Positions 15,493 through 33,934 are shown, counted from the first letter of the stretch. The stretch: 43,900 bases of DNA from Clostridium sp. CAG:448 (GCA_000433415.1 FR890455.1:1-43900), one strand, 5' to 3'. Notes: generated by a model not told the origin, from the letters alone. Program-made: numbers and translations.

Positions 15493-15600
15493 CGGACCTC
15501 CTTTCTGTAAAATATAAAAAGCATGACAAACAGCCTGAGTGGCTACTTGTCATGCTCGTATGTCTTGGCATCGTGCTATGTACAAAGTGCAAAGTGTTGA

Positions 15601-15792: not shown

Positions 15793-15910
15793 AAATCTCC
15801 TTGCCTTTTTCGACTCTTGAAAATGTTTTTTGTTTTTCAATAAAACTTTCCGGACTTCCGTGTTGTGTGGACATGGGTCTTGTTCGGTGAAGCGGGGTTT
15901 TTTGGGGGGG

Positions 15911-15949
15911 AAAAATAGGTGCATATCCGGACGGGGACCGACGCACCTA
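15911..15949 (-). terminator. Intrinsic-terminator-like hairpin inside the leader upstream of the Zn-ribbon gene; possible attenuator or sRNA 3' end
   Basis: On the minus strand, TAGGTGC...GCACCTA has an inner CGG/CCG extension and is followed by TTTTT and then C7. Confidence 0.45.
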
Positions 15950-16179
15950 AGCAAATTTTTTTGCGGGACAGCTATTAGGCAGCATGAGAGGTTGCGAAAA
16001 TCCGAACTGCAGGTTTTTGACCCACTCCGAAACGGGATGGCGCTGGGATTGCCAAACAGTTTTATGCTCGACAGACCGGGAGAAGAACCGGTCCGTTTTT
16101 GGTGCGGAATCCAGCAGGCTGTTTTCCTTGCTTTTCGGTATTGATGGATGATTTTTGCAAGTTCGGAACTTTCGGTTTT

Positions 16180-16208
16180 ATTATATCACGCAAAAAAGCG
16201 CTTGTCAA
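16180..16208 (-). promoter_or_regulatory. Consensus sigma-A promoter reading leftwards
   Basis: The minus strand reads TTGACA-AGCGCTTTTTTGCGTGA(17 nt)-TATAAT with a TG extended -10. A 13-bp palindrome AAGTTCCGAACTT (16159-16171) sits just downstream of the predicted start site and is a candidate operator. Confidence 0.6.
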
Positions 16209-16217
16209 GCGCTTTTT
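16192..16217 (-). terminator. Terminator hairpin downstream of the methyltransferase gene, overlapping the -35 box of the next promoter
   Basis: Palindrome AAAAAGCGCTTGTCAAGCGCTTTTT. It forms a GC stem flanked by A-run and T-run, so it is usable in both orientations. Confidence 0.55.
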
Positions 16218-16445
16218 GAAACTTTACGTTTTGTTTACAATTGGATTATCAAAATCCGCTTGCTCTGGGATGTACCGGAATAGGATCGGTGTAGCTGGTG
16301 TAGATCCGGTATCGAAACCGCTTGAAAAAACTATGCGTTTACGGACTGATCTTGCCGGTGTGGGGGCGCATTTCGTGAGTTTGGAGGGGAATTCGCTATA
16401 AACGGATGCATATAACAAACGTATAATTTATAAAACAATTTATCA

Positions 16446-17675: not shown

Positions 17676-17715
17676 ATTATCATTCCTTTCAGATTGGTGT
17701 CGGATAAACAAAATC

Positions 17716-17744
17716 AGTATAGCACAACTCCGGCAGAAAAGCAA
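17716..17744 (-). promoter_or_regulatory. Candidate sigma-A promoter of the methyltransferase gene
   Basis: The minus strand reads TTGCTT, a 17-nt spacer, then TGcTATACT. Confidence 0.5.
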
Positions 17745-18595: not shown

Positions 18596-18624
18596 TTGAC
18601 AAAGGCGGGGCGGTGTGGTATGAT
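18596..18624 (+). promoter_or_regulatory. Candidate sigma-A promoter of the seven-gene transporter operon
   Basis: TTGACA (18596-18601), a 17-nt spacer, then TGgTATGAT (18619-18624). Confidence 0.6.
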
Positions 18625-18630
18625 ATAGCT

Positions 18631-19166
18631 ATCAATTTAGGGCATTTTGCACCCATGAATTGCGATGCAGGCGCCCGTCGTGCACAAACGCCTCTTGAAT
18701 AAGGAGGCGTTTGCGCAAAAGAACCGCCGCGGCAGGTGGCGTCCGGGACCGAGGGACGGCATTTGCAGCGGCGGGTCTTGGCCGAAGCTTTTGCAGCGGC
18801 GTGTCTTGACCGACAATTGCATAGCAATCATGCTGAATGCCGCGGATCGTGACTCCCGGGATGCCCGTTTATCGTGCGGATCGGGAGGAGACGATGGGCT
18901 TTTTACCGGCGCGAGCCGTGTAGAGGTGCGGTCCGGTCGTACGTTGCCGGATACCGTTGCTGCGGTTGCTGCGAAAGCGAGACCGTGCATTGCTTGCCGA
19001 CGGATTGTTTCCTTGTTTCCTTGAGATCGGTTCTGCTCGGAACGGATGGCAGGGGAAGAGGCGATTTGCCGGCGGCGGGCACAGGTATGATTGGCGGCGC
19101 ACAATACCCCAATTGGGTCGGCGGTTTTCCGCGCCGGATCCAAAGAAATGCAGGAGGAAAGGTTTA
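18631..19166 (+). promoter_or_regulatory. Long (about 535 nt) GC-rich non-coding 5' leader with hairpins and short tandem repeats
   Basis: No protein-like ORF exists on either strand. A 10-bp hairpin CAAACGCCTC/GAGGCGTTTG lies at 18685-18714. A 24-nt direct repeat TTTGCAGCGGCG(G/T)GTCTTG(G/A)CCGA occurs at 18762-18785 and 18790-18813. GTTGCTGCG occurs twice (18956-18973) and TTGTTTCC twice (19005-19020). Confidence 0.4.
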
Positions 19167-22100
19167 ATGAAGAAAACGAAATTCCAAAGATTCGCGGCGT
19201 GCCTTCTCGCGCTTACAATGCTTCTGGGATCCGCTCTGGTTTCTGTCAGTGCGGCAACCGGGACATCTGATGCGTCGAGCGGTTCGTCCGTTACGGACAA
19301 GAGTCTGCAGGAAATCCGCGAGTTGCTCAATGCGATTTCGTACAGTGAGTACGTTCTGTCCGACGTATTTACCACGACTGGATACGCAAAGGAGCAGATT
19401 GTCATCGATGTGCTGGCAGATATTGATACGAGCAGAGACGGAAACTGCTACATTGACGATGAAAAGGTCAAAGAGCTGACCGCGGGCGGAAATGCAGATA
19501 AGGTGAATGACTATGCACATAAGTCCACCCTTTACCGTGACGCAGACGGCAATGAGATTGAGAGCCTTTATACGCCGTCCAACGGTTCCGTGTCTTGGAA
19601 GGTGGAACTCAGCGAAAGCGCCAAGTATGCCATCGTGATCGAATATTACGCGGTGACGGGCAAGGCGACGGCTGTGGAACGTGTTTTCAAAATCAATGAT
19701 AAAGTGCCTTTTTCCGAGGCGCGTTACCTGACGCTGAACAAAAACTGGGTGACAGAGCCTGTCCAGTATCAGTTGCGTGACGGCGAAACGGCTGAAAGTG
19801 CGAAAGCGGATTTGGAATCGATCGGTTTGACCGTTACCAAGGATGAGAGCGGAAATCTTTACTGTGCAATTCCGGAGGTTTGGGATGAAGAACTTGTCAA
19901 GGCGTGTGAAGATCGCGGCTTGCGCTTCTTCTTGACTGACGTTACCAATAATGAGATCCGCAGTGCCGCGGTGCAGGCGCCTGTGTGGACAAATTATTAT
20001 CTGCGCGATTCCAGCGGATACTATACAGATAACTTTGTTTTTGCCCTGGAGAAGGGAACCAACATCCTGACCCTGGAAGGCAAGAACGAACCCCTTGCAA
20101 TCAAATCCATTCGCCTGGTTCCGGTGGAAGAAACGCCGACCTATGATGAGTACATCAAGAATCTGGGGAGTGTGAAGAACAATGCCAACAGCACAGTGCG
20201 TCTGGAAGCGGAGTATCCCAATGCCACTTCCTCCAAGACCATTTATCCGACTGAGGACCGTTCCGATGCTGCGAACTCGCCGTCGGATGTTTCCCGCACG
20301 GTGATGAATACGCTGGGTGGTGAAAAATGGCAGACTGCCGGTCAGTATGTCGAGTACAACTTCCGCGTCAGCGGCTCGGGTATGTATGACCTGATTTCCC
20401 ATTTCCGCCAAAATATCCTGGACGGCATGTATGTGTGCCGCAGCCTGGAGATTTACAGCCATAACGTGGAAGAGGGAACTGCCGGCTACTACAACGGTGC
20501 ACCCTTTGAAGAAGCAAAGTCGTTGCGCTACAATTACAGTGCCAACTGGAATGTAACAAAACTGACAGACGGATCCACCGGGTCGGACGGTAAGACCCGC
20601 AACTACCCAATCTACTTTGTGGGAACCGACGATAATAAGGATGCATATTACACCATCCGTTTTGTGGTTACGCTCGGCTCCATGGGTGATATTGTCCGCG
20701 AAGTACAGGAAATTTTGAATTCCGTCAACAATGACTATCTGAACATCCTTCGTCTGACCGGTGCAAACCCCAATACATACAACTCTTACGGATTCTCCCG
20801 CGTCATGCCGGATACCCTGATCGACATGATCGTACAGTCCAGAAGACTGGACAATTCCGAAAACAAGAACAATAAGAATTATCAGCCTGGACTTGCGGAA
20901 CGGTTGACCACCCTGGCAGGACAGAAATCCTCTAACGTTGGTACGCTGCAGCGGATCGCGGATCTGCTCAAGAAGATGGGAACCGACGAAGAAGAAATTC
21001 CCACGAACCTTGAAAACCTCAAGACCTATATCGGGACCCTGGGAACCTTCCTTTCGGACGCACAGACACAGCCGCTGCTTCTTGACTATATCCTGATTCG
21101 TCCTGCGGATTCTGCCGAAAAGATGCCACGCGGCAAGGCGGGATTCTTCCAGGCGATTGCGCACGAAGTCTCCGGCTTCTTCATGAGCTTTGTCCGTGAC
21201 TATAACAGCATGGGTTCCATGGACGAGGATGCGGACAAGAGCATTGAAGTATGGCTGGCATACGGACGTGACCAATCTCAGGTTATCCGTAACCTGATTA
21301 ACAATGACTTTACACCGAATACCGGTGTTGCGGTTGACCTGAAGCTGGTTGCGGCTGCAACTCTTCTGCCTTCCATTTTGTCTGGCTCCGGACCGGATGT
21401 TTATCTGGGGCTGGGACAGGCGGATGTTATCAACTACGCGATTCGTTCTGCACTGATCAATATTGATGACCGTGCGGATTTTGCTGAAGTGCGTGACAAC
21501 TTCAACGATGCAGCAATGCTGGTGCTTGGTATTGAAGATGCAGACCAGATCATGCATTACTACGGGCTGCCTGAAACGCAATCCTTTACCATGATGTTTG
21601 TCCGTGACGACGTGCTTGCAGACCTCGGTCTGGAAGTACCCAAGACATGGGACGATATTCTGGCGGCGGTTCCAGTGCTCCAGTCGCAGAAGATGGAAAT
21701 CGGTCTGACCACGGACTTCCAGATTTTCCTGTATCAGCGCAACGGTGAGCTGTTTGCGGATAACGGTATGAGAATCAACCTGGATTCGGTTGTGGGACTT
21801 TCTTCCTTCGAATATATGTGTAACCTGTTTACGCAGTATTCTTTCCCGTATACCTACAATGCGGCAAACCGTTTCCGTACCGGTGAAATGCCGATCATCA
21901 TCGGTGATTACACCGCTATGTACAACCAACTGAAGGTTTTTGCAACTGAAATCGAAGGCGCATGGGAATTCCTTCCGATGCCCGGTATCAAGCAGGAAGA
22001 CGGCAGTATCAACAATGTGTCGATTTCTTCCATTGCGGCTGTTGTCATGGTGTCCGGCGTTGAGGACAAAGACAGCGCTTGGGAGTATATGAAGTGGTAC

Positions 22101-22871
22101 ACCGGAAAGGATTGCCAGAGCGACTATACCAACGAGATGGTTGCAATCCTTGGTCCTTCCGCAAAGCACCCGACGGCGAATAAGTACGCGCTGGAGGATT
22201 TGCCCTGGACGACCTCGGAGCTGGCACAGGTGCAGGCACAGTTCAACAACCTCGCGGCAGTGCCGAACTATCCCGGTGCTTACATTATCGGTCGTTATAC
22301 CAACTTCGCATTCCTGTCCGCTTATAACGACAAAGCTGACCCTGCCGAATCCATTCTTTCTTACGTGCCGACCATCAACAAGGAAATTACACGTAAGCGG
22401 AACGAATTCAAGCTGGAAACCCTGGAGGCGGGCGAAACGCTTGCAAGCAAGCGTTTGAACCAGGCAACCGGTCTGCTCGATAAGATTGAGAAGAACAGCG
22501 ACTATAAGAGCGATTATGCAGAGGTAATCCGTGAGGCGAAGGCTGCAATCAAAGATCAGAACGAAAACGGTCTGATGATGGCGGCGGAAAAATTGCGCGG
22601 AATTCTGCGTGAACTGGATCCGAATTATCAGTATGTCGAATCTCATGCGAACGACGGTAATACCAATTATAAGAACAGTACTTATTGGAAGAATCTTGAA
22701 TCACTCATGGGCTACGATATGAATGATTTAAGCCTGACAAACAAAGAGAAGAAAAAGCTGAGAAAGTGCTACTACTACGAAGCCTACGATCTGACAGACG
22801 AGATGGCAACGCTTCTGCACTTTGCCGCTGAGTATATGGAAGACGCAGCAGCTGCGCTTTCCACATATTGA
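19167..22871 (+). CDS. Giant secreted ABC substrate-binding protein (family 1 core) with a roughly 690-aa N-terminal extension carrying two CBM-like modules, plus a C-terminal helical tail
   Basis: AGGAGG (19152-19157) precedes the ATG at 19167. Signal peptide MKKTKFQRFAACLLALTMLLGSALVSVSA. CBM-like segments include SWKVELSESAKYAIVIEYY... and RLEAEYPNATS...GEKWQTAGQYVEYNFRVSGSGMYDL. The binding-protein core starts near aa 691 (IEVWLAYGRDQSQVIRNLINNDFTPNTGVAVDLKLV...). The track ORF start at 18957 is an extension. Confidence 0.85.
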   Translation: MKKTKFQRFAACLLALTMLLGSALVSVSAATGTSDASSGSSVTDKSLQEIRELLNAISYSEYVLSDVFTTTGYAKEQIVIDVLADIDTSRDGNCYIDDEKVKELTAGGNADKVNDYAHKSTLYRDADGNEIESLYTPSNGSVSWKVELSESAKYAIVIEYYAVTGKATAVERVFKINDKVPFSEARYLTLNKNWVTEPVQYQLRDGETAESAKADLESIGLTVTKDESGNLYCAIPEVWDEELVKACEDRGLRFFLTDVTNNEIRSAAVQAPVWTNYYLRDSSGYYTDNFVFALEKGTNILTLEGKNEPLAIKSIRLVPVEETPTYDEYIKNLGSVKNNANSTVRLEAEYPNATSSKTIYPTEDRSDAANSPSDVSRTVMNTLGGEKWQTAGQYVEYNFRVSGSGMYDLISHFRQNILDGMYVCRSLEIYSHNVEEGTAGYYNGAPFEEAKSLRYNYSANWNVTKLTDGSTGSDGKTRNYPIYFVGTDDNKDAYYTIRFVVTLGSMGDIVREVQEILNSVNNDYLNILRLTGANPNTYNSYGFSRVMPDTLIDMIVQSRRLDNSENKNNKNYQPGLAERLTTLAGQKSSNVGTLQRIADLLKKMGTDEEEIPTNLENLKTYIGTLGTFLSDAQTQPLLLDYILIRPADSAEKMPRGKAGFFQAIAHEVSGFFMSFVRDYNSMGSMDEDADKSIEVWLAYGRDQSQVIRNLINNDFTPNTGVAVDLKLVAAATLLPSILSGSGPDVYLGLGQADVINYAIRSALINIDDRADFAEVRDNFNDAAMLVLGIEDADQIMHYYGLPETQSFTMMFVRDDVLADLGLEVPKTWDDILAAVPVLQSQKMEIGLTTDFQIFLYQRNGELFADNGMRINLDSVVGLSSFEYMCNLFTQYSFPYTYNAANRFRTGEMPIIIGDYTAMYNQLKVFATEIEGAWEFLPMPGIKQEDGSINNVSISSIAAVVMVSGVEDKDSAWEYMKWYTGKDCQSDYTNEMVAILGPSAKHPTANKYALEDLPWTTSELAQVQAQFNNLAAVPNYPGAYIIGRYTNFAFLSAYNDKADPAESILSYVPTINKEITRKRNEFKLETLEAGETLASKRLNQATGLLDKIEKNSDYKSDYAEVIREAKAAIKDQNENGLMMAAEKLRGILRELDPNYQYVESHANDGNTNYKNSTYWKNLESLMGYDMNDLSLTNKEKKKLRKCYYYEAYDLTDEMATLLHFAAEYMEDAAAALSTY

Positions 22872-22909
22872 CCGTCTTCCGATTATAAATCCACAAAGGA
22901 GAAACGCAT

Positions 22910-23857
22910 ATGTCAGAAAGAACGGCAACTAAAAAAGCTGTTTCGCGGAAAGATATGACCAAGGCGCAGTGGACATGGAAAGAGATGAAGCGCAACTGGG
23001 TTGCCTATGTAATGGTTGCCCCGTACATGATTCTCTTTACGCTGTTTACCGTTGTGCCGGTGGTGCTTTCCATCTTCATCAGCTTTACGGACTTCAATAT
23101 GCTGGAATGGCCGAACTTCGTTTTTCTGGACAACTACATCACGTTGTTCTTTGATGACGATATTTTCCTCATTGCAGTCAAAAACACTTTCATTTTCGCG
23201 GTGATTGTCGGACCTGCCTCCTACCTGATGTCTTACATGGTGGCGTGGTTCATCAATGAATTGCCGCCTAAGATCCGGGCGGTTGTAACCCTGATCTTCT
23301 ACGCGCCTTCCATTTCCGGTCAGGTTTACTTGATTTGGGGTACCTTGTTCTCGTCCGACTCCTATGGTTGGGTCAACGCAACATTGCTCAAACTTGGACT
23401 GATTGACAAGGAGATTTTGTTCTTCCAGGATGAAAAATACGTAATGCCTCTGTGTATTATCGTTTCGCTTTGGACCTCGTTGGGTACTTCCTTCCTGGCG
23501 TTTATCGCAGGTTTGCAGGGGGTTGACCGCTCGCTTTACGAAGCGGGTGCGGTGGACGGTGTCAAGAACCGTTGGCAGGAACTTTGGTATATTACGTTGC
23601 CGTCTATGAAGCCGCAGTTGATGTTTGGTGCGGTGATGTCCATTACCGGTTCGTTTGGATTTGGCGGTATCGTTACCGCGCTTGCCGGTTTCCCGTCCGT
23701 CAACTACTGTGCACATACCATCATGCACCATCTGGAAGACTACGGCGGACAGCGATATGAAATCGGTTATTCTTCTACCATCGCGGTCATTCTGTTTGCC
23801 ATTATGATGGGCGCGAACATGTTGGTGAAGAAAATACTCTCGAAGGTAGGTACGTAA
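22910..23857 (+). CDS. Carbohydrate ABC transporter permease (MalF/LplB-like), pair 1
   Basis: Six-TM MetI-like pattern with EAA loop LYEAGAVDGVKNRWQELWYITLPSMKP. RBS AAAGGAG. Confidence 0.9.
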   Translation: MSERTATKKAVSRKDMTKAQWTWKEMKRNWVAYVMVAPYMILFTLFTVVPVVLSIFISFTDFNMLEWPNFVFLDNYITLFFDDDIFLIAVKNTFIFAVIVGPASYLMSYMVAWFINELPPKIRAVVTLIFYAPSISGQVYLIWGTLFSSDSYGWVNATLLKLGLIDKEILFFQDEKYVMPLCIIVSLWTSLGTSFLAFIAGLQGVDRSLYEAGAVDGVKNRWQELWYITLPSMKPQLMFGAVMSITGSFGFGGIVTALAGFPSVNYCAHTIMHHLEDYGGQRYEIGYSSTIAVILFAIMMGANMLVKKILSKVGT

Positions 23858-23860
23858 GTT

Positions 23861-24733
23861 ATGGCGAAATTAAGAACAAGAAAACATAAAGTCGTACTTG
23901 CCCGTTCCGCGGGGGGCGATGCATTTATCACTGTAATTTTGGTCATCCTGGGCGCATTTATGTTCCTGCCGATGCTGTATGTGTTCATGCAGGCGCTGAA
24001 GCCGTTGGATGAGTTGTGGATGTACCCGCCACGCTTCTACGTGATGAGCCCGACCTTATCCAACTTTACGGATTTGTTCCAGCTCATGAACACTTCCTGG
24101 GTTCCGTTTTCCCGTTACGTTTTCAATACCGTTCTGACGTCCGTTGCCGGTACTTTCGGACACCTGTTCCTTGCATCTCTTGCGGCATACTGCATGGCAA
24201 AGATCAAGTTTCCCGGGCGCAACGCCATGTTCTGGACGGTACAGACCTCACTGATGTTCAACTCCACCGTTACGACCATTACCTCCTTCATTCTGATGTC
24301 GGCTTTGGGTTGGTTGGATACCTACTGGGCGCTGATCGTTCCTGCGTGGTGTAGTTCCTTGGGACTTTATCTGATGAAGCAGTTCATGGATACCAACATC
24401 ACCGATGCGGTTTTGGAGTCCGCGCGGCTTGACGGCGCGAGAGAATTGCGCATTTATTGGACCATTGCGATGCCCATGGTTAAGCCTGCATGGCTGACCC
24501 TGATCATTTACTGCTTCCAGAACCTGTGGAATGCGGGAGCTTCTATGTACATTTACTCCGAGCAGTTGAAATCCTTCAACTATGCCATCGGTCAGATTAC
24601 CGCGGGCGGTATCAAGCGTGCCGGTGCGTCGGCAGCCGCTTCTGTGGTCATGATGATGGTGCCGATCATTGTGTTTGTTATTTCACAGTCCAACATCATT
24701 GAGACCATGGGCTCCAGTGGTATGAAGGACTGA
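23861..24733 (+). CDS. Carbohydrate ABC transporter permease (MalG/LplC-like), pair 1
   Basis: EAA loop VLESARLDGARELRIYWTIAMPMVKP. It starts 3 nt after the upstream stop. Confidence 0.9.
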   Translation: MAKLRTRKHKVVLARSAGGDAFITVILVILGAFMFLPMLYVFMQALKPLDELWMYPPRFYVMSPTLSNFTDLFQLMNTSWVPFSRYVFNTVLTSVAGTFGHLFLASLAAYCMAKIKFPGRNAMFWTVQTSLMFNSTVTTITSFILMSALGWLDTYWALIVPAWCSSLGLYLMKQFMDTNITDAVLESARLDGARELRIYWTIAMPMVKPAWLTLIIYCFQNLWNAGASMYIYSEQLKSFNYAIGQITAGGIKRAGASAAASVVMMMVPIIVFVISQSNIIETMGSSGMKD

Positions 24734-24749
24734 TAAGGGAGGGAACGAA

Positions 24750-26915
24750 ATGAAAAAACTGACCGCAATATTTTGTGTCGTCTTCGTTGCGCTCTTGCTC
24801 CTGACGGCGTTTCCGCTCCGTGCCAGTGCCGGCTCGGCATATCAGACTTATACATACTCCATTGACGGCTATGCCCTGTATTCGCCGGATGCGTATACGG
24901 CTGTAACCACTGTGGACTCGGAGTATATGGGATTGCTGGATAAGTCATTGTTCGCAAATCCTGTTGCGATTGATAATCCCGGCGATATGGTTACGGATGA
25001 CGACGGCAATGTTTACATCGCCGATACCGGTAATAACCGGATCGTTGTTTTGGACCGTTACTATAAGGTGCGTTTTGTAATTACCGAATTCCGGAACGAT
25101 CAGGGCGTTGCGGATGCACTGACGGCGCCGCAGGGTGTGTTCGTCACCGACGAAAACATTTGGGTTTGCGACTCAGGTGCCAACCGGATCGTGGCATTCG
25201 ACCGGGACGGTAACTTTGACCGCCTTGTCGAGGAACCGGAAAGTGAATTGTTTGAATCCGATTCCGTTTATAAGCCGGTTGCGATGGCAGTCGACCAATA
25301 CGGCAGACTGTATGTCGTTTCTTCTACGACTTATCAGGGAATCATTGTCATGACCAATGACGGTGAGTTTAACGGTTTTATCGGTACACAGGCAGTGGCG
25401 CTTTCCGCTTGGGAAATCCTTTGGCGTCGTTTCCAAACCGACGCGCAGAAGGAATATGCCGATGAAGTTGTCGCAACCGAGTTCAATAACATTACGATCA
25501 ACAAAGACGGTTTCATTTATGTAACCACCTCTTCCATTAAGGATTCCTCTGTAGAGAGTGCAATCAAGGGAAAAGATAAGAAGGGTACATACATGCCGGT
25601 CAAGATGCTGAATGCCAACGGCGATGAAATCATGCGCCGGAACGGCTTCTGGGCTCCTGCCGGAGAGATTGACTATGCTACGGAATCCACTGCGGAAATC
25701 CGCGGCGTATCCACAATCATTGACGTTGCTGTCGGTGAAGAAGGCACGTGGTCCATCATTGACGAAAAGAGAAACCGTGTTTATACCTACGATTTTGACG
25801 GAAACCTGCTTTACGCTTTCGGCGACAGCGGCACCATGTTGGGCGGTCTTGCCAGTGTGGAGGCAATCACGTATCAGGGCGATACCATGCTGATACTGGA
25901 TAAGACCAACGACAACATTACGGTGTTCAACCGTACCGAGTACGGTGATATTCTGATTCAGGCATTGGCGGCAGAAAACACACAGGATTACGATCTTGCC
26001 ATCAACCTGTGGACGGAAGTTCTGAAGCGTAACAACAACTTCGATGCGGCATACGTCGGTATCGGAGATGCGATGTACCGGAACGGACAGTATCAGGAAT
26101 CGCTTGCCTACTATGAGGCTGCGTATGAAACGACCGGCTGGTCCAAGTCCTATAAGGAAATCCGTACAGAGTGGATGTCAACCTACTTCTTGCTGTTCGT
26201 TGTCATCATTGTTGCCGTCATTGTTGGTGTGGTTCTCTTGTTCAAGACAATGGGAAAGATCAACAAGAAAGCAACTCACAACGGCAGAGCCCGCAAAACC
26301 TACGGACAGGAAGTTGCGTATGCGTTCCACGTTATCGCACATCCGTTTGACGGTTTTTGGGATCTGAAGCATGAGCACAGAGGTTCTGTGCGCGGTGCAC
26401 TGACCATTATTGCCGTTACCGTTCTTGTGTTCTTCTATCAGGCAATCGGTTCCGGTTATCTGGTCAATCCGTATGGTGGTTACACTACGATTTTCACGCA
26501 GTTGCTTGCTGTCCTGGTTCCTCTGTTCCTGTTCGTTGTGGCAAACTGGTGTCTGACCACCTTGTTTGACGGCGAAGGTAGCTTTAAGGATGTGTTCATC
26601 GCGGCAGGATACAGCCTGACACCGATCCCGCTGTTGGTTCTTCCTGCGACCATCTACTCCAACTTTGCAATCAGCACCGAGGTGGATATCATTTCCTTTG
26701 TGGGAACCTTGGCGTTTATCTGGATGGGAATTCTCCTGTTCTTCGGTACGCAGGTTACGCATGACTACGGTATCGGCGGAAATGTCCTTGCCATTCTGGG
26801 AACCGCTGTGGGTATGATCTTTATCATGTTCTTTGCAATTCTGTTTTCCACGCTTGTCGCAAAGCTGGTCAGCCTTGTGACCAACATTGTGGTGGAGTTG
26901 CAGTACAGAATGTAA
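24750..26915 (+). CDS. Membrane protein with a signal peptide, a six-bladed NHL-repeat propeller, a TPR-like segment, one TM helix and a C-terminal Yip1-like multi-TM domain
   Basis: NHL repeats include PGDMVTDDDGNVYIADTGNNRIVVLD and PQGVFVTDENIWVCDSGANRIVAFD. TPR-like segment AYVGIGDAMYRNGQYQESLAYYEAAYE. TM helix at aa 477-498. Yip1-like region HPFDGFWDL...FDGEGSFKDVFIAAGYSLTPIPLL. RBS GGGAGGG. Confidence 0.85.
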   Translation: MKKLTAIFCVVFVALLLLTAFPLRASAGSAYQTYTYSIDGYALYSPDAYTAVTTVDSEYMGLLDKSLFANPVAIDNPGDMVTDDDGNVYIADTGNNRIVVLDRYYKVRFVITEFRNDQGVADALTAPQGVFVTDENIWVCDSGANRIVAFDRDGNFDRLVEEPESELFESDSVYKPVAMAVDQYGRLYVVSSTTYQGIIVMTNDGEFNGFIGTQAVALSAWEILWRRFQTDAQKEYADEVVATEFNNITINKDGFIYVTTSSIKDSSVESAIKGKDKKGTYMPVKMLNANGDEIMRRNGFWAPAGEIDYATESTAEIRGVSTIIDVAVGEEGTWSIIDEKRNRVYTYDFDGNLLYAFGDSGTMLGGLASVEAITYQGDTMLILDKTNDNITVFNRTEYGDILIQALAAENTQDYDLAINLWTEVLKRNNNFDAAYVGIGDAMYRNGQYQESLAYYEAAYETTGWSKSYKEIRTEWMSTYFLLFVVIIVAVIVGVVLLFKTMGKINKKATHNGRARKTYGQEVAYAFHVIAHPFDGFWDLKHEHRGSVRGALTIIAVTVLVFFYQAIGSGYLVNPYGGYTTIFTQLLAVLVPLFLFVVANWCLTTLFDGEGSFKDVFIAAGYSLTPIPLLVLPATIYSNFAISTEVDIISFVGTLAFIWMGILLFFGTQVTHDYGIGGNVLAILGTAVGMIFIMFFAILFSTLVAKLVSLVTNIVVELQYRM

Positions 26916-26936
26916 CTTAGAGGAGAGGAGAAAAAA

Positions 26937-29900
26937 ATGAAATCAGGTTACAGAATAATTTCAATGTTCTTGACTCTTTTGTTACTGTTCGGCGCACTGG
27001 AGTGTCTGGTGATTACGACGTATGCGGATGAGGAAACGACAACGGACGGCGGAACCACCGGCGGAGACGAGGATACGGTTACAACGGTTGACTATACCGT
27101 TACTCCCTATGTTTCCGAAGCAGACAAACTGGCAACCATGACGCATTATCCGCATGCGGATAAAAAGGTAAAGAGCGAAAACGGTAAGACCTATAGCTAT
27201 CAGCTTTACGTGGATGAATATTCCGGTGAGGTTGCGGAGGTCTACTGCGACGAGAATGGGAACATTATCGATACGCTGTTTACCAACCCGTACGATGTAG
27301 GTGTGTCCACCGCGTCCACCTCCATCAAACAGCAGATCCTGTCGCAGATCACCGTAAAATATACGGATAACGATAACGACAAGTACTTCTACAGCTATGA
27401 GCAGGCTGCAATGCGCAACCAGATCAAGGTGAAGAAGATCAAAAACGGTATCCGCGTGGAATATACCATCGGACGTGAGGAAGCACGTTTGCTGCTCCCC
27501 AGACTGATTACCAATGAGCGTTTTGAAACGATGATTCTGGCGCCGATGCGTGAGGCACTGGGCGAGAATTCCTTCATGTACAAGAAATTCACTGCATACT
27601 ATCTGGAAAAGAATCTGGATAAGATTACTTCCCAGCGTGCAAGAGAAGAAATGATCGCAGTGTTTCCGATCGTGGAGAAGTACGCCGTTTGGGTCTTTGA
27701 CCCGACTGCATCCGACGCCGAGAAGAACCTTTGTGAGGAATTGATCAAGGCGAACTGCCCGGATTATTCCTACGAGGAATTGGACACCGACCATGAAATG
27801 ACGCAGTATCAGGGTGAAGAAGATAATCCACCGCTGTTTAAGATGGCGTTGGAGTATACGCTGGATGCCAACGGTATGACTGTTCGTTTGCCTGCAAACG
27901 GTATCCGGTTCAATGAGTCCCTGTATCAGTTGACCTATGTGGAGGTTCTTCCTTACATGGGAGCGGGCAATAACCTGTATAACGGGTATACGATGTACCC
28001 GGACGGTTCAGGCGCGCTGTTCGCATTTGCCGATCCGTCTCTGAAAACCAAAATTTCGGTTACAGGTAAGGTTTACGGATCCGACTACGCTTACCATACC
28101 ATTTCCGGTACCTATCAGCAGGCGATCCGCTATCCGGTGTACGGTATTCAGGAGGATACGACCTATGTGAACCTGGAGCAGGAGGATGGTACAAGTACCA
28201 TTATTTCCGGTTCTGTGGTGAAGAAAATGGAAGACATGACAACCGTTCCAGATGCGTTGCGCGCGTATAAGCAGCTTTTGAACGCAAGTGCCAATGCAAC
28301 GGGAGATTCGCAGGTCACACGGACTGATATTACCAAGAGCCGCGCATTCCTCGCCATCATTGAAGAAGGAGATGCTTTGGCATCAATCTCTACATACACG
28401 GACGCAACCGAGAGCGAATATAGCGCAATGCGGATGCAGTTCAATCCCCGCCCGAAGGACTCCTACAACATTCAGGATTCCATCTCGGTTGGTTCCAACT
28501 CTACTTGGACCGTGGTCAGTAACCGAAAGTATGTCGGAAACTACAAGATCCGTTATGTCCTGTGTACAGATGAGAAAACCGCCAAGGCGGAGAATCTGGA
28601 TAAGTACTATGACGCAAGCTGGTTTGGCATGGCAGTCGCGTACCGGGATTACCTGGAGCGCGAAGGTGCTCTGACCCGTTTGACCGCGGAGGATATTGAA
28701 GACGATATTCCGCTGTACATCGAATCGTTCGGTACGCTGGAAACGACCGAGAAAATCCTGTCCGTCCCGGTCAATGTAATGACCCCTCTGACGACCTTTG
28801 AGAATGTCAAAACCATGTATGACGAATTGAGCAAAGCCGGTATCAAGAATATCAATTTCAAGCTGACCGGTTTTGCAAATGGCGGTATGTACTCCAATGT
28901 GCCGTACGATCTGAAGTTTGAGAATTCGGTAGGCGGCAACAAGGGATTCCAGGAACTCTTGGATTACGCAAAAGAAGTATCCGAGCAGACCGGAAAGCAC
29001 CTGGGCATTTATCCTGATTTTGATTTTGCATACGTTGTGAATGACACATTGTTTGATGCCACCGTGCTCAAACTGCATGCGTCAAAGACCATTGACGACC
29101 GTTATGCAAGTAAAAAATACTATGTTGCAACCAAGCAGAAGTATCAGGGCAGATACGAAATGGTGCTCTCGCCGGCGTATATGAGCCACTTCTACAAGCA
29201 CTTGATTGCAAATTATCTGGGTAATTTCAACAATGTAACCGGTATTTCCGTTGGTTCGCTTGGTTCCGCTCTGAACTCTGACTTTGATGAGGATGAGCCT
29301 TACAACCGCGAGGACGCAAAGGAATTCACAATCAGCGCCTTTGAGTATCTGAATAAGGCGGGACTGAGTGTGATGACCGAAGGCGGCAACTCCTATACCT
29401 GGAAATATGCGGATCATATCCTGGGAATTTCCCTGGATTCCAGCCGTTATAACAAGGCAAGTTGCTCCATTCCGTTTGTCGGTGTCATTCTGCACGGTTA
29501 CAAACAGTTCTCCGACGATCCGCTCAACATGGAGGGCGATATCCAGTACGCCATGTTGAAGATTCTGGAAAACGGAGCTTCTCCGTATTTCACACTTTCC
29601 TATCAGAACACACAGAAGCTCAAGGACTTCACCTATCTGAGCAACTACTATTCCGTGCGTTATGATATCTGGAAAGAGGATATGATTGACAAGTACAACG
29701 AGCTGAACGCTGTGTTGCGGGATGTACAGCTCAATCTGATCACCAAGCACGAATTTATCAACGGTACCCGTGTACCTGACGTAGATGAATTGGAATCGGA
29801 TATCGACCAGGCGATGAGCGAATATCGCGAAAGAGAACTCGCCGAAGTTGAGGAAGCGGAAAAGCTGCTCCTGCAGAAGGTGGGTAATGCCCGTAAGAAG

Positions 29901-31670
29901 ATCAGAGAGGTAGAAGATGCCCTCGCAAAGGCAGTGACAGCGACAGGTTCCGCAAGAAACAATGCGCAGGTCAACAAGTTTACGGTCGATGACAAGATGG
30001 CAAATTACAAGTCTGCCATTCTTGAGTATGTCGATGCGGTTGCAAAGGGTTGGGATAAACTGGCGGATTCCACGGATGAGACAGACGCGGCAAATTATCA
30101 GGCGTATGTCAACACCACAAAATCCGTTACCAAGGAACGCTACCGTCTGATCGTCGCTTTGGCACAGGTCGGAAACTATGCGAAGATTGCTGAGGATTCC
30201 ATGAATTCCGTTATTGAGCTTTTGGATGTCAGCCGTCAGGCAGTCGAGGATGTCAAGAACGGTGTCAAGGATATTGAGGACGAAGCAGTTAAACAGACAA
30301 TCATCAGTGATTCCGAGCGCCTGTACAATCTGTCTGCACTGTACCTGAACGGTCTTGCAAACGGAGAAAAGGGCTACTATGAGGTGAAGGCACGCTACCA
30401 GGATGCATACTTTGATCAGTTGCTTGCCGACGGCACCAGACTTTATGATCTGAATGCGGAGTATGAAAAGGTTGTGCAGTATATGACTGCGGTTGCCGCA
30501 TTGGATAGTCTTCTGAGCGCAAAGAAGAATTTGACTGCTGCTCTTGCTGCAATTGAAAAGGCAACGGCTTTGGTGGAAACCCGCCGGAAGGCAGTTGACG
30601 AGGCGGCAGATGATGCAGCCAAAGAGAAAGCGGAAGCCGCACTGCAGACTGCAAAAGAAGATCTTGCAACGCAGGAAAGCAACCGCGACGCACTGAATGT
30701 GCTGATTGAAAAGCTGATTGCGGCCGGTACCGAGGCGGGTTACGATCTGGATGCCATCGAAAAGGCAGAAGACCTGAAGATCAAAGCAGACGTACCGTAT
30801 GTGTACACCACTTCAAACAGTGAAGCTCTGCGTCAGTATGTTGTATACAGCTTGGGCAGTAAACTGAATGCCGAGTTGGGTATTGCAGGCGAGATCAACG
30901 CTTATGCCGAAAAATATGTACTTGCAGAGGCTTACATTGCCGCAAAGAAAGCTTACGATACGGCTGTTAAGGATGAGGCAAAGGCAAAGCAGGCATATGA
31001 GAAGGATCAGACCGATGCACTGAAGGCTGCTTACGAAGCTGCACAGAAGGTAAAGGCTGATTGCAAGGCGGTGATGGATGCATACCTTGCAAAGGATGCG
31101 GCGCTTGAAAAGGTCACCAATGTAAATCAGTACGTAACCGTAGGCGACTATGTGAAGTTTGTCTATGAACAGAGCAACCTCTCCTATGCGTTGATCAGTG
31201 CACGAAACAAACTCAAAAAGGAAATCGCCGATCAGCTCGGAACTGACTTCACAGAGGAATCCCTTAATATTCCTGCCAAGGTGCAGGCAACCGACTTCTT
31301 CAGCTTTACTTATTGCATCACGGAAAATAAGGAATTGGCAGCCAAGGCGTTTGAAGAAAGCGTACAGGGCGTACTTGATTTCTGTTCCAGTGTGGAACTC
31401 CCTGCCGAGTACACGGTTACACGCAAGGACATCACTGACAGAATGTCAAACAACAATTCCGGTACAAAAGAAGAAGAAACCAAGACTGACTTTGATAAGT
31501 ACGCGACCAGCGGCAATAAGATTGTTGCCGTGACGTACGGTAATGATGATGGCAGTGTCAAGAAGGTCATCATTATCAACTACAACAACTTCGCGGTAAA
31601 GGTAGAGTACAATGGCAAGCTGTACACCATTGCGAAATTCGGTTATGAGATTATTCTCGGCAATCATTGA
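26937..31670 (+). CDS. 1577-aa secreted or membrane-anchored protein. It has a large N-terminal domain of unknown function (possibly the family annotated DUF5696, glycosidase-like), a roughly 490-aa alpha-helical insertion, and a short beta-rich C-terminus.
   Basis: RBS GAGGAGAGGAG. N-terminal hydrophobic signal or anchor IISMFLTLLLLFGAL. Central segments read PLYIESFGTLE..., LTGFANGGMY, GIYPDFDFAYV and VMTEGGNSYTW...IPFVGVILHGY. An A/E/K/D-rich helical region spans aa ~948-1435. The C-terminus reads KIVAVTYGNDDGSVKKVIIINYNNFAVKVEYNGKLYTI. Confidence 0.85.
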   Translation: MKSGYRIISMFLTLLLLFGALECLVITTYADEETTTDGGTTGGDEDTVTTVDYTVTPYVSEADKLATMTHYPHADKKVKSENGKTYSYQLYVDEYSGEVAEVYCDENGNIIDTLFTNPYDVGVSTASTSIKQQILSQITVKYTDNDNDKYFYSYEQAAMRNQIKVKKIKNGIRVEYTIGREEARLLLPRLITNERFETMILAPMREALGENSFMYKKFTAYYLEKNLDKITSQRAREEMIAVFPIVEKYAVWVFDPTASDAEKNLCEELIKANCPDYSYEELDTDHEMTQYQGEEDNPPLFKMALEYTLDANGMTVRLPANGIRFNESLYQLTYVEVLPYMGAGNNLYNGYTMYPDGSGALFAFADPSLKTKISVTGKVYGSDYAYHTISGTYQQAIRYPVYGIQEDTTYVNLEQEDGTSTIISGSVVKKMEDMTTVPDALRAYKQLLNASANATGDSQVTRTDITKSRAFLAIIEEGDALASISTYTDATESEYSAMRMQFNPRPKDSYNIQDSISVGSNSTWTVVSNRKYVGNYKIRYVLCTDEKTAKAENLDKYYDASWFGMAVAYRDYLEREGALTRLTAEDIEDDIPLYIESFGTLETTEKILSVPVNVMTPLTTFENVKTMYDELSKAGIKNINFKLTGFANGGMYSNVPYDLKFENSVGGNKGFQELLDYAKEVSEQTGKHLGIYPDFDFAYVVNDTLFDATVLKLHASKTIDDRYASKKYYVATKQKYQGRYEMVLSPAYMSHFYKHLIANYLGNFNNVTGISVGSLGSALNSDFDEDEPYNREDAKEFTISAFEYLNKAGLSVMTEGGNSYTWKYADHILGISLDSSRYNKASCSIPFVGVILHGYKQFSDDPLNMEGDIQYAMLKILENGASPYFTLSYQNTQKLKDFTYLSNYYSVRYDIWKEDMIDKYNELNAVLRDVQLNLITKHEFINGTRVPDVDELESDIDQAMSEYRERELAEVEEAEKLLLQKVGNARKKIREVEDALAKAVTATGSARNNAQVNKFTVDDKMANYKSAILEYVDAVAKGWDKLADSTDETDAANYQAYVNTTKSVTKERYRLIVALAQVGNYAKIAEDSMNSVIELLDVSRQAVEDVKNGVKDIEDEAVKQTIISDSERLYNLSALYLNGLANGEKGYYEVKARYQDAYFDQLLADGTRLYDLNAEYEKVVQYMTAVAALDSLLSAKKNLTAALAAIEKATALVETRRKAVDEAADDAAKEKAEAALQTAKEDLATQESNRDALNVLIEKLIAAGTEAGYDLDAIEKAEDLKIKADVPYVYTTSNSEALRQYVVYSLGSKLNAELGIAGEINAYAEKYVLAEAYIAAKKAYDTAVKDEAKAKQAYEKDQTDALKAAYEAAQKVKADCKAVMDAYLAKDAALEKVTNVNQYVTVGDYVKFVYEQSNLSYALISARNKLKKEIADQLGTDFTEESLNIPAKVQATDFFSFTYCITENKELAAKAFEESVQGVLDFCSSVELPAEYTVTRKDITDRMSNNNSGTKEEETKTDFDKYATSGNKIVAVTYGNDDGSVKKVIIINYNNFAVKVEYNGKLYTIAKFGYEIILGNH

Positions 31671-31684
31671 TGGGAGGTGTGAAG

Positions 31685-32674
31685 ATGACAAACCAAGCAA
31701 AAGCACAAACAACAGTGACTCCCGGCAAGACGGCACCGAAAAAGCGTAAGATTGCCTCTTTGGACAAACGAAAAGCACGGATGGGGTGGGTATTCGTCCT
31801 GCCCTTCGTGATCGGATTTGTCTGCGTTTATCTGCCGATTATCTTTGAGTCCATTCAACTCAGTTTTTACAAAATTTCCATTGTGGGTGCCGGCGGCGGC
31901 TTTGAAAAAGAGTTCGTTGGCTGGGACAACTACAGTTGGGCACTCGGAACCGACCCGGACTTCGTCCGCACGTTGGTGGAGGGTCTGAAGGAACTGGCAT
32001 TCGATATTCCCGCGATCATCATTTTCTCCCTGTTCATGGCAGTGTTGCTGAACCAGAAAATGATCGGACGTGCGGCATTTCGTGCAATCTTCTTCATCCC
32101 GGTTATTCTTTCCACCGGTATCATGGAGTCCATTGACGCACAGAACATTCTGTCCAGTTACATGGATTCTACCTCCGGTATCGACGACGGTTCGGGAACC
32201 AGCGCGGCGACAGAAATCGTTTCGGCGATCGATATTGAGCGGCTGTTCTCAAACATGAAGGTCGGAGAAGGCATGGTTGAATACGTTGTAAACATGATCA
32301 ACGATATTTACGACATTGTTAACCGTTCCGGCGTACAGATGCTGATCTTCCTTGCCGGCTTGCAGTCTATCTCCCCTGCCATTTATGAGGCGTGCAAGAT
32401 TGACGGCGCAACCTCGTGGGAAACCTTCTGGAAGATTACATTCCCGATGATCAGCCCGATGATTCTTGTAAACGGTATTTATACCATTATCGACTCCTTT
32501 ACGACCGATTCCAATACAGTTATGACCTACATTGCGTCTGTGTATAAACAGAACGACGGTGACGTCCGCAGTTCTGCAATGGCGTGGATGTACTTCCTGA
32601 TTGTCATTGCCATCATCGCCGTAGTCGGAGCAATCTTCTCTGCATTTGTCTTCTATCAGAGAAGGGAATCTTAA
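31685..32674 (+). CDS. Carbohydrate ABC transporter permease (MalF-like), pair 2
   Basis: GGGAGG (31672-31677) precedes the ATG at 31685. EAA loop IYEACKIDGATSWETFWKITFPMISP. Confidence 0.9.
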   Translation: MTNQAKAQTTVTPGKTAPKKRKIASLDKRKARMGWVFVLPFVIGFVCVYLPIIFESIQLSFYKISIVGAGGGFEKEFVGWDNYSWALGTDPDFVRTLVEGLKELAFDIPAIIIFSLFMAVLLNQKMIGRAAFRAIFFIPVILSTGIMESIDAQNILSSYMDSTSGIDDGSGTSAATEIVSAIDIERLFSNMKVGEGMVEYVVNMINDIYDIVNRSGVQMLIFLAGLQSISPAIYEACKIDGATSWETFWKITFPMISPMILVNGIYTIIDSFTTDSNTVMTYIASVYKQNDGDVRSSAMAWMYFLIVIAIIAVVGAIFSAFVFYQRRES

Positions 32675-32692
32675 AGAAAGGAGGAGCAGAAA

Positions 32693-33802
32693 ATGGAGAA
32701 AACAAATCAAGCGGTTGCCGCAAACGAAAGCGGCAGACCGATTATTAAAGAGTCAAAGCGTTCCATCAAGATGGACTTTGACCGCACACCGCTGAAGGAT
32801 CGGCTGAAGGCGAAATTCCTGAACATGTATTTTGTAACCAGAGTGATCTGGTACATCTTCCGCCTGGTTCTTCTGATCGGTATTTCCTATATCGTTCTGT
32901 ATCCCTTCTTTACAAAGATTGCCGGTTCCTTTATGGCACCGGAGGACTTCGTAGATGTAACGGTTCGTTTGATCCCGAAGCATTGGACGTTGGATATTTA
33001 CAAGGCGATTATCACAGAGCTGGATTATTTTGAGGCATTTCTGAATTCCTTCATTTTGTCCGGTATGGTCGCTTTGATGCAGACGTTTATCTGTTCTTTG
33101 ATCGGCTACGGCTTGGCAAAGTTCCGTTTCAAGGGAAATAAGCTGGTATTCATGCTCGTAATCCTGACCATGGTGGTCCCGCACCAGACCCTGCAGCTTT
33201 CCATGTTCATGAATTTCCGCTTCTTCGATGTGTTCGGCATTCTGTCCTTCCTGAGCGGAGGTGTGACAACCGGTATTGAGGGGTTGGATGGCATCCTCTC
33301 CAAGATCCATTTGCTGAATTTCCCGAACGGGTTGAATCTGACAAAGACTTATGCACCGTTGATTATTCTGTCCATGACCGGACTTGCATTTAAGAACGGT
33401 TTGTACGTCTTCATGATGCGTCAGTTCTTTACGGGAATTCCGGAATCTTTGGAGGAATCGGCATATATCGACGGATCGGGAACGTTCCGTACCTTCCTGA
33501 CCATCATTCTGCCGATGTCTATTCCGATGATGATTACGATTTTCCTGTTCGCTTTCTGTTGGCAGTGGACCGACGACTTCTACACGTCTTTGTTCTACAT
33601 CAACCAGCAGGTGAAATTGTTGACCGGCATTGTGGAGATCCCGCCGAGTCTGAAGTTGGATTATGCGGGCAAGTCGTTGTATGAAGCGGCGATTCGGAAT
33701 ACCTGCGGTATTATGATTATTCTGCCTTTGATTATCCTCTATATCTTCTGCCAGAACTTCCTGGTACAGGGTATTGAGCGTTCGGGTATCACCGGCGAAT
33801 AA
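32693..33802 (+). CDS. Carbohydrate ABC transporter permease (MalG-like, enlarged external loops), pair 2
   Basis: RBS AGGAGGAG. EAA loop LEESAYIDGSGTFRTFLTIILPMSIP. Confidence 0.9.
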   Translation: MEKTNQAVAANESGRPIIKESKRSIKMDFDRTPLKDRLKAKFLNMYFVTRVIWYIFRLVLLIGISYIVLYPFFTKIAGSFMAPEDFVDVTVRLIPKHWTLDIYKAIITELDYFEAFLNSFILSGMVALMQTFICSLIGYGLAKFRFKGNKLVFMLVILTMVVPHQTLQLSMFMNFRFFDVFGILSFLSGGVTTGIEGLDGILSKIHLLNFPNGLNLTKTYAPLIILSMTGLAFKNGLYVFMMRQFFTGIPESLEESAYIDGSGTFRTFLTIILPMSIPMMITIFLFAFCWQWTDDFYTSLFYINQQVKLLTGIVEIPPSLKLDYAGKSLYEAAIRNTCGIMIILPLIILYIFCQNFLVQGIERSGITGE

Positions 33803-33869: not shown

Positions 33870-33873
33870 AAAG

Positions 33874-33904
33874 GAAAGCCGTTATCCGTGGGATAGCGGC
33901 TTTC
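33874..33904 (+). terminator. Terminator hairpin after the seven-gene operon
   Basis: 14-bp stem GAAAGCCGTTATCC/GGATAGCGGCTTTC (one G-U pair), loop GTG, weak T-rich tail (TCTCTG). Confidence 0.6.
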
Positions 33905-33934
33905 TCTGAGAAGGCGAAGTATTGCGGGAGAGAT

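Follow-up and report, generated by a model that had tools for sequence, protein, structure and literature searches.

The locus described here raises the question of why two complete pairs of ABC (ATP-binding cassette) permeases, one giant binding protein and two further large surface or membrane proteins are encoded side by side, and what such a set of proteins might do. It was found in a window of 43,900 nucleotides (nt; the whole stretch of DNA that was analysed, FR890455.1:1-43900 of assembly GCA_000433415.1) from Clostridium sp. CAG:448, a human-gut metagenome species, and is also present in several human-gut metagenome assemblies. Seven consecutive open reading frames (ORFs) on the + strand, spanning positions 19167-33802 and called g1 to g7 in the following, make up the operon. 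Judged from its sequence and synteny, it is predicted to encode an ABC sugar importer that has a second translocator and an accessory set which is fixed, deeply conserved, and so far undescribed. The genes are as follows (aa, amino acids):

19167-22871, + strand: g1, 1234 aa, secreted giant solute-binding protein
22910-23857, + strand: g2, 315 aa, MalF/UgpA-type ABC permease, first pair
23861-24733, + strand: g3, 290 aa, MalG/UgpE-type ABC permease, first pair
24750-26915, + strand: g4, 721 aa, NHL-TPR-Yip1 membrane protein
26937-31670, + strand: g5, 1577 aa, secreted DUF5696 protein
31685-32674, + strand: g6, 329 aa counted from the ATG, MalF-type ABC permease, second pair (the ORF opens at TTG 31667, upstream of ATG 31685)
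32693-33802, + strand: g7, 369 aa, MalG-type ABC permease, second pair

The intergenic gaps from g1 to g7 are 38, 3, 16, 21, 14, and 18 nt, and a GGAGG-like site lies upstream of all seven starts, the site of g3 being weak. An earlier note on this DNA, made from the sequence alone, had described seven same-strand genes at 19167-33802 with gaps of 3-38 nt and a ribosome-binding site for each; a check of ORFs and spacing confirmed all of this, and the domain content that it had claimed was recovered with Pfam for g2 to g7 and by a match of SBP_bac_1 to the C-terminal half of g1. The seven genes are thus predicted to form one conserved operon, the layout of which is not a matter of chance, because none of the homologous loci examined departs from this gene order.

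Conservation of the seven-gene order

Relatives of g5 were searched for by a pattern scan covering one genome per species, according to which at least 517 species-level genomes encode such a protein. For the analysis of synteny, the best 80 loci from the pattern scan and two others (82 loci of gut Clostridia in total) were searched with g1 to g7 using tblastn. The order g1-g2-g3-g4-g5-g6-g7 was found on the same strand in 82 of 82 loci as far as the contigs reach, and the flanks differ from locus to locus. Leaving aside the nearest relative (L003), identities across the loci (tblastn) were approximately 45-59% for g1, 74-86% for g2 as well as for g3, 55-71% for g4, 44-57% for g5, 62-75% for g6, and 52-72% for g7; in L003, g2 is 96% identical. 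Both g2 and g3 are better conserved than the RlmI-like rRNA methyltransferase adjoining the operon (55-76%). The same seven genes were found in a distant locus, with g5 at 39% identity, where they are situated between groEL and rpsL-fusA-tuf; counting this locus, the order was seen in all 83 further loci of uncultured gut Clostridia that were examined. An apparent strain polymorphism in g3 (284-285 aa in two conspecific scaffolds; L086 ~15470-15480 and L088 ~5870-5880) was rejected as an artefact, because the positions in question are runs of N (scaffold gaps) and no real indel is present.

Two cultured carriers, Butyrivibrio fibrisolvens and Paenibacillus cellulosilyticus, were identified by tblastn of a plasmid collection, the Butyrivibrio copy being located on the 243-kb plasmid pNP243. 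The gene orders are as follows (GH, glycoside hydrolase family):

Butyrivibrio fibrisolvens D1, pNP243: histidine kinase, response regulator, GH43, 977-aa binding protein, two permeases, NHL-repeat protein, separate YIP1 protein, DUF5696 protein (839 aa), two permeases, two ordinary binding proteins
Paenibacillus cellulosilyticus KACC 14175: ugpC, 986-aa binding protein, two permeases, 719-aa YIP1 protein, DUF5696 protein (757 aa), two permeases

In both clusters, the best match of each window protein is its positional orthologue, with the following identities:

g2: Butyrivibrio 60%, Paenibacillus 44%
g3: Butyrivibrio 57%, Paenibacillus 35%
g5: Butyrivibrio 27%, Paenibacillus 22-24%
g6: Butyrivibrio 40%, Paenibacillus 36%
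g7: Butyrivibrio 39%, Paenibacillus 27%

On this sampling, the predicted seven-gene unit keeps its strict order in hundreds of species, which belong to two classes of Bacillota. The co-occurrence of the permease, Yip1, and DUF5696 genes is conserved across genomes when the neighbourhood search is seeded from the operon (82 loci, the distant locus, and the two cultured species). The statement of the earlier note that Yip1 and DUF5696 genes stand beside such transporters in Clostridia and Paenibacillus was verified in the Butyrivibrio and Paenibacillus clusters, where these genes carry generic names only.

Permeases, binding protein and accessory proteins

The Pfam family BPD_transp_1 was matched by g2, g3, g6, and g7, in the case of g2 at 25.0 bits, which is under the cut-off of 26.4 bits. 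Against NCBIfam, weak matches were obtained for g2 (UgpA-like), g3 (UgpE-like), and g7 (MalG/UgpE-like), all of them far below the equivalog cut-offs. The EAA-type loops, through which an ATPase was expected to dock, were read from the translations as YEAGAVDG (g2), LESARLDG (g3), YEACKIDG (g6), and EESAYIDG (g7), and the earlier statement that all four permeases keep them therefore holds. Among solved structures, g3 is closest to the chains AlgM2, SugB, and MalG, and g7 to SugB and MalG; g6 has an extra extracytoplasmic loop and g7 a loop insertion. Of the features that define the carbohydrate uptake transporter family CUT1 (Transporter Classification 3.A.1.1), a family-1 binding protein was found once and MalF/MalG-type subunits with an EAA loop were found twice. 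Between the pairs, g6 is 28% identical to g2 and g7 26% identical to g3, and the g6 orthologues of Butyrivibrio (40%) and Paenibacillus (36%) are closer to g6 than to g2. By these sequence comparisons, g2/g3 and g6/g7 are old paralogues; given the identity of 26-28% between them and the matches of the orthologues, the pairs diverged before the split of Clostridia and Bacilli and have stayed together ever since.

CUT1 importers are known to use ATPases that are encoded at other places in the genome (MsmK/MsiK), and sharing is common. An ATPase of the MalK/MsmK type is encoded neither in the operon nor in the window. The earlier claim that the window encodes no ATPase at all was wrong, as two ABC ATPases with oligo_HPY domains were detected at 11380-12411 and 12371-13963. 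Both belong to a separate upstream operon of the Opp/Dpp type (5921-13963), and they were rejected as energisers of the four permeases on account of their oligo_HPY domains and of their membership of this peptide-type operon. A scan for Walker A and LSGGQ motifs in the flanks (±10 kb) of the 82 loci returned no linked MalK-type ATPase, its two matches in the flanks being proteins of 591 and 642 aa on the opposite strand. The orthologous Paenibacillus cluster, by contrast, is headed by ugpC, the product of which is a standard MalK-type (UgpC/MsmK-type) ATPase. This linkage removes the puzzle of the missing ATPase, which is not to be regarded as a peculiarity of the system; by analogy with other CUT1 systems, the ATPase is, in most carriers, presumably simply encoded elsewhere.

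The three large proteins are composed of the following parts (CBM, carbohydrate-binding module; TM, transmembrane):

g1, ~aa 121-502 (nt 19527-20672, + strand): two CBM6/35-like beta-sandwich domains
g1, aa 707-982 (nt 21285-22112, + strand): family-1 binding domain, SBP_bac_1
g4: signal peptide; NHL beta-propeller, ~aa 30-400; TPR repeats, aa 404-465; TM helix, 480-498; basic loop; Yip1, aa 526-696
g5, aa 40-945 (nt 27054-29771, + strand): predicted glycosidase-like region, beta-sandwich and (beta/alpha)8 barrel
g5, aa ~946-1514 (nt 29772-31478, + strand): coiled-coil insertion, ~570 residues
g5, aa ~1515-1577 (nt 31479-31667, + strand): small conserved C-terminal beta domain

The sequence of g1 is identical (100%) to a protein named [quoted passage not shown] It starts with a signal peptide that has no lipobox, and a lipobox was found in none of the giant binding proteins. 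A helical linker connects the CBM-like domains to the binding domain, which is followed by a helical tail. No match was obtained with the whole of g1 against Pfam. The C-terminal half alone matched SBP_bac_1 over aa 707-982 (E 7e-18, 66 bits vs. a cut-off of 26), residues 690-987 matched the solved family-1 binding proteins 5ysb and 1elj in a PDB search, and homologues of g1 carry SBP_bac_1 or SBP_bac_8. The N-terminal half is the well-predicted part of the AlphaFold model; it resembled structures of CBM35/CBM6 in Foldseek (probability 1.0), and some homologues have Pfam matches to CBM_35 or Golvesin_C.

For g4, Pfam reported Yip1 (E 1e-15), NHL (E 4e-10), and TPR_16/TPR_2. The protein is a member of the Yip1 family (PF04893), which it matched with 58 bits (cut-off 28.6) over positions 1-171 of the 173 in the model. 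Hydropathy analysis indicated TM segments at 480-498, 549-567, 580-598, 615-633, 647-665, and 679-697, the last five of which constitute the Yip1 core. In Butyrivibrio (L084 9189-11284), the equivalent of g4 is encoded by two genes that overlap by 22 nt, one for the NHL-TPR-TM part and the other for a YIP1 protein of 206 aa. The break is located in the basic cytoplasmic loop, and the two halves are therefore regarded as separable modules. In Bacillus, the Yip1 protein YknW modulates the assembly of the ABC transporter YknXYZ (PMC4887032).

A side observation concerns the upstream Opp/Dpp-type operon, the extracellular parts of which are outsized too. It encodes a family-5 binding protein of 769 aa and an OppC-type permease of 647 aa, in which an insertion, an RCC1-repeat beta-propeller, separates the OppC_N helix from the permease core; two ATPases of the OppD/F type come next. 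In bearing a propeller, this transporter subunit resembles g4 with its NHL propeller.

The Pfam family DUF5696 (PF18952) is matched by g5 with 429 bits (cut-off 25.6; E 3e-128). This family comprises 3,904 clusters at 50% identity with E ≤ 1e-3, and its members reach more than 2,500 residues. The AlphaFold model of g5 covers residues 40-1000 (pLDDT (predicted local distance difference test) 73, pTM (predicted template modelling score) 0.64). Foldseek searches with this model matched GH129 NagBb (5wzn, E 1e-12), and also GH101 EngBF (6qep), GH36 alpha-galactosidases, GH31, and GH97; all matches at E ≤ 1e-3 (28 of 28) fell into these related alpha-glycosidase/lyase families. The beta-sandwich and (beta/alpha)8 barrel typical of GH27/31/36-clan-like alpha-glycosidases are present, on the predicted model only. 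Searched against the PDB, g5 itself had no real match, and its profile matched coiled coils only, all from the C-terminal region. Relaxed Pfam scans of g5 segments gave no GH family even at E ≤ 10, and hhalign of the DUF5696 profile with the E. coli GH31 enzyme YicI resulted in a probability of 0.25%, which is not significant; the sole aligned stretch comprised the predicted first barrel strand and helix of each. Based on the model, g5 is thus assigned to a fold and not to a family. From Clostridia to Bacilli, at 22-28% overall identity, the residues D356, D383, D782, R791, N818, H853, N864, and E878 are invariant, which would be the pattern expected of a conserved active site.

In an alignment with short homologues of g5, the barrel of the latter runs straight into the C-terminal domain without any coiled coil, and the coiled coil is hence interpreted as an insertion. 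As both ends of this insertion must meet, it is expected to form an antiparallel hairpin, and the resulting arm could reach a length of up to ~40 nm.

Promoter, leader and neighbouring genes

Upstream and downstream of the operon, the following features were identified:

18596-18624, + strand: promoter, sigma-70-type, TTGACA, 17 nt, TATGAT, extended -10 TG
18631-19166, + strand: 5' leader, ~536 nt
18640-18654, + strand: conserved start-of-transcript motif TTTAGGGCATTTTGC, within the leader
18816-18828: perfect palindrome ATTGCATAGCAAT, within the leader
33873-33905, + strand: hairpin 3' of the operon, 15-bp stem, 3-nt loop, -23.5 kcal/mol

The promoter agrees with the consensus at 11 of 12 positions and was the best site in 17.7 kb according to a promoter scan. 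The pattern CTTGACA-N14-TGTGnTATnAT was found at the equivalent place in ~48 of 52 homologous loci, and no promoter of comparable quality was detected inside the operon. Both signals that the earlier note had described, the promoter before and the hairpin after the genes, are present. The hairpin is strong, its tail (CUCUGAG) is not U-rich, and a terminator scan of the region did not include it in its output.

In loci with a detected promoter pattern, most leaders have a length of 125-536 nt. Folding of the window leader yielded z = -4.7 vs. shuffled sequences. Across loci, the motif at its 5' end reads A(A/T)TTAGGG(C/T)A, and in many of them it pairs with a downstream CCYGAAUUU(U), which results in a terminator-like hairpin with a U run and with variable inner stems; the copy of this 5' hairpin in the window has no U run. 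Single-sequence folds do give the 5' hairpin, and RNAalifold on 24 leader starts did not arrive at a consensus structure, as divergence of the inner stems precludes their alignment. The palindrome ATTGCATAGCAAT is kept in 11 loci (the window, L003, L005, L007-L011, L013, L016, and L063), where it precedes the start of g1 by 304-351 nt. Searches against Rfam with the leader (E-value mode) and with the whole window (gathering mode) gave no credible match. The features of the leader point to regulation via the leader: the 5' hairpin may act in attenuation or, as a 5' stem-loop, stabilise the mRNA, and the palindrome could be an operator or an RNA element. An ORF of 119 codons in the leader (18665-19024) was treated as non-coding, because it lacks a ribosome-binding site and its product is rich in Arg, Gly, and Pro.

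The surroundings of the operon in the window are as follows (HTH, helix-turn-helix; SAM, S-adenosylmethionine):

13964-16445: ~2.5 kb without an ORF of more than 178 aa and without a tRNA or Rfam match
16446-17744, minus strand: RlmI-like PUA/SAM methyltransferase
33935-35284: 449-aa soluble protein with a zinc-ribbon motif (aa 257-287) and a weak acyltransferase match
35350-38397: 1015-aa protein with an N-terminal hydrophobic segment and GH20b, GH84 (NAGidase), and F5/8 type C domains
39430-40176, opposite strand to the operon: nearest HTH gene

The RlmI-like gene lies upstream of g1 in divergent orientation not only in the window but also in 22 related loci, at 50-76% identity, and is separated from g1 by an intergenic region of 1-1.4 kb, i.e., local synteny extends beyond the seven genes. 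A homologue of the 449-aa protein (42% identity) follows the operon in L077 only. In conspecific contigs, the region resembling 13964-16445 contains small genes only, one of them with HTH_11 (L086 5973-6311, minus strand). The window contains no tRNA genes, and no regulator adjoins the operon in it.

The gene with the GH84 domain had been the basis for an earlier hint that the substrate might be mucin or another glycan containing GlcNAc (N-acetylglucosamine). Among the 82 related loci searched, however, such a gene lies beside the operon in none. It is therefore uninformative on the substrate of the operon and was rejected as a clue to it, and the hint is not supported.

Possible function and comparison with known systems

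We consider it probable that the operon encodes a composite apparatus for the capture, cleavage, and import of a glycan, which is based on CUT1-type ABC importers and uses an ATPase encoded elsewhere. In this apparatus, the secreted g1 would hold a polymeric glycan via its two CBM6/35-like modules, and its family-1 domain would bind an oligosaccharide. The secreted g5, with its alpha-glycosidase-like fold, would cut or trim the captured glycan at the cell surface, the coiled-coil insertion folding back as a hairpin to give the arm mentioned above. The paralogous heterodimers g2/g3 and g6/g7 would carry the product or products across the membrane, presumably inwards, and g4 may anchor and organise the extracellular proteins and the translocators through its NHL, TPR, and Yip1 parts. 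Energy would be supplied by an ATPase of the MalK/MsmK/UgpC type from elsewhere in the genome. The CBM-like modules, the predicted fold of g5, and the synteny fit the dedicated apparatus for glycan capture, processing, and import that the earlier note had proposed; its enzymatic activity, its assembly into a complex, and its single transcript are parts that we still infer.

In a far-reaching version of this reading, the seven proteins would be one wall-spanning machine, a monoderm counterpart of the Sus utilisome of Bacteroidota, with DUF5696 founding a new GH family. The Yip1 domain of g4 would then hold two different ABC translocators side by side, the NHL propeller and TPR repeats of g4 would dock the anchor-less g1 and the DUF5696 enzyme, and the antiparallel coiled-coil arm of g5 (tens of nm, of species-variable length) would extend through the peptidoglycan so as to reach the glycan. 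Both translocators would be fed either by one binding protein or by g5 itself. We regard this version as doubtful.

Several observations weigh against a composite apparatus for glycan capture, cleavage, and import. Regarding the binding protein, the family-1 domain of g1 was poorly modelled by AlphaFold (low confidence), neither g1 nor g5 has a lipobox or a sortase signal, and the window holds only one binding protein for two permease pairs. Regarding g5, the TM-scores (template modelling scores) of the Foldseek matches are modest (0.33-0.47) and the model is of medium confidence. The invariant NSDFDEDEPYNRED loop around D782 has a pLDDT below 50, none of the catalogued GH families was detected by sequence (PDB searches, direct and with a profile, relaxed Pfam scans, and hhalign), and the catalytic residues could not be mapped onto the model. 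Regarding the genomic setting, clustering of the ORFs flanking the 82 loci of gut Clostridia yielded housekeeping families only (named from sequence motifs): an RlmI-like methyltransferase in 21 loci, alanyl-tRNA synthetase (alaS) in 12, SpoIIGA and SigE-like proteins in 9 each, Suf-like proteins in 9, and AbrB/SpoVT-like proteins in 8. No recurrent regulator, glycan-degrading enzyme, or sugar-catabolism gene was found near the operon in these loci. Such a housekeeping setting is unusual for a nutrient-foraging locus.

It is this setting that gives weight to a different reading, in which the apparatus recycles, remodels, or senses the cell's own wall or surface glycopolymer, with DUF5696 trimming in the wall and the transporters recovering the fragments. 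The housekeeping neighbours of the 82 loci and the position of the distant locus between groEL and rpsL-fusA-tuf agree with a role in the envelope, as do the missing linkage to a regulator or catabolic enzyme, the near-consensus and conserved promoter, the conservation of g2 and g3 beyond that of the adjoining rRNA methyltransferase, and the length of the coiled-coil hairpin, which at an inferred ~40 nm is similar to the thickness of a Gram-positive wall. The Butyrivibrio cluster, however, is adjoined by GH43, a two-component system (histidine kinase and response regulator), and two additional binding proteins, and this sugar-utilisation context of the plasmid copy is typical of nutrient glycan loci. 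Moreover, CBM6/35-type modules are best known from enzymes acting on plant or algal polysaccharides, and the long structured leader with its terminator-like hairpin suggests conditional expression. On balance, a function in the cell's own envelope appears unlikely to us.

The weak points of the g5 assignment could also be explained if DUF5696 were a glycan-binding protein or structural stalk with a degenerate glycosidase fold, and the system captured and imported glycans without a processing step. The family has no sequence-level link to any GH family, neither the acid/base nor the nucleophile can be assigned in g5, the putative active-site loop is poorly modelled, and a coiled-coil insertion of hundreds of residues is unusual in glycosidases. 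On the other hand, many polar and acidic residues of g5 are invariant at 22-28% identity, which is the pattern of an active site and not of a scaffold, and, as read from the model and the alignment, D782 is predicted to be placed after a barrel strand like the nucleophile of the matched families. A non-catalytic g5 is hence considered improbable. Finally, it is very improbable, and by the synteny close to excluded, that two ordinary and independent CUT1 transporters came to adjoin by chance with unrelated genes inserted between them: although each pair on its own is a standard MalF/MalG-type heterodimer and the sharing of an ATPase from elsewhere is common in CUT1 systems, the order and tight spacing are identical in every locus from gut Clostridia to Lachnospiraceae and Bacilli, the best matches are positional orthologues although the flanks differ completely, both pairs are accompanied by a single binding-protein gene in the window, and one conserved promoter precedes the genes with none of like quality inside.

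The carriers of the operon are abundant, mostly uncultured Clostridia of gut and rumen, among whose most conserved surface systems it ranks. No paper in the library searched was found to mention either DUF5696 or PF18952, searches on Yip1 and ABC transporters returned nothing on the seven-gene operon, no study of which was found, and its proteins carry generic database names only. The sole paper found to name CAG:448 is a survey of the cattle microbiome. If the composite apparatus is real, it would represent a new Gram-positive architecture for carbohydrate uptake, consisting of two translocators, a Yip1 scaffold, a CBM-bearing binding protein, and an enzyme on a coiled-coil stalk. For DUF5696, which on the predicted model is likely to be a new family of glycosidases, and for bacterial Yip1 proteins that accompany importers, the locus offers a first functional handle. 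As the cluster is present in cultured strains of two species, Butyrivibrio fibrisolvens D1 (WAA20_RS20510-20550) and Paenibacillus cellulosilyticus KACC 14175 (HUB94_RS00490-00525), these predictions are directly testable.

Compared to the CUT1 importers MalEFGK2, LpqY-SugABC, AlgQ-AlgM1M2SS, and UgpBAEC, the operon shares the family-1 binding domain, the MalF/MalG-type heterodimers with EAA loops, and, in the Paenibacillus orthologue, the linked ATPase of the MalK/UgpC type. It differs from them in that one binding protein is combined with two permease pairs, paralogous at 26-28% identity, in g1, which is ~3x the usual size and has CBM6/35-like modules, helical extensions, and no lipid anchor, and in the large conserved NHL-TPR-Yip1 and DUF5696 proteins encoded between the pairs. 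With YknWXYZ of Bacillus, it has in common that a membrane protein with a Yip1 domain is encoded together with an ABC transporter. YknYZ, however, is an exporter of the MacB type and has a membrane fusion protein, whereas the partners of g4 are permeases of the type-I importer class, and g4 is extended by an extracellular NHL propeller as well as by TPR repeats.

In its predicted fold, g5 (aa 40-945) resembles the GH129 alpha-N-acetylgalactosaminidase NagBb, GH101 EngBF, GH36, GH31, and GH97 (Foldseek E 1e-12 to 1e-4, probability ~1.0), with which the model shares the succession of a beta-sandwich, a (beta/alpha)8 barrel, and a C-terminal beta domain. In these families, the nucleophile follows strand 4 of the barrel and the acid/base strand 6. 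Unlike these enzymes, to which it has no detectable sequence similarity, g5 contains the 570-residue coiled coil between barrel and C-terminal domain.

A Gram-positive polysaccharide utilisation locus is a co-located set of a glycan-degrading enzyme, a transporter, and a regulator. As in such loci and in the Sus-type utilisome, the operon is predicted to bring together a protein that binds glycans at the surface, a glycosidase-like protein outside the cell, and an importer dedicated to the pathway. The only linked candidate for a carbohydrate-active enzyme is DUF5696, at the level of the fold; GH84 in the window is non-syntenic elsewhere, and GH43 is linked in Butyrivibrio. Unlike Gram-positive polysaccharide utilisation loci, the loci of gut Clostridia have no linked regulator and no linked catalogued glycan-degrading enzyme. 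Transport would be performed by ABC permeases and not by a TonB-dependent transporter as in the Sus-type utilisome of Bacteroidota, and the architecture of the operon, in contrast to the modular one of both polysaccharide utilisation loci and Sus systems, is fixed at seven genes.

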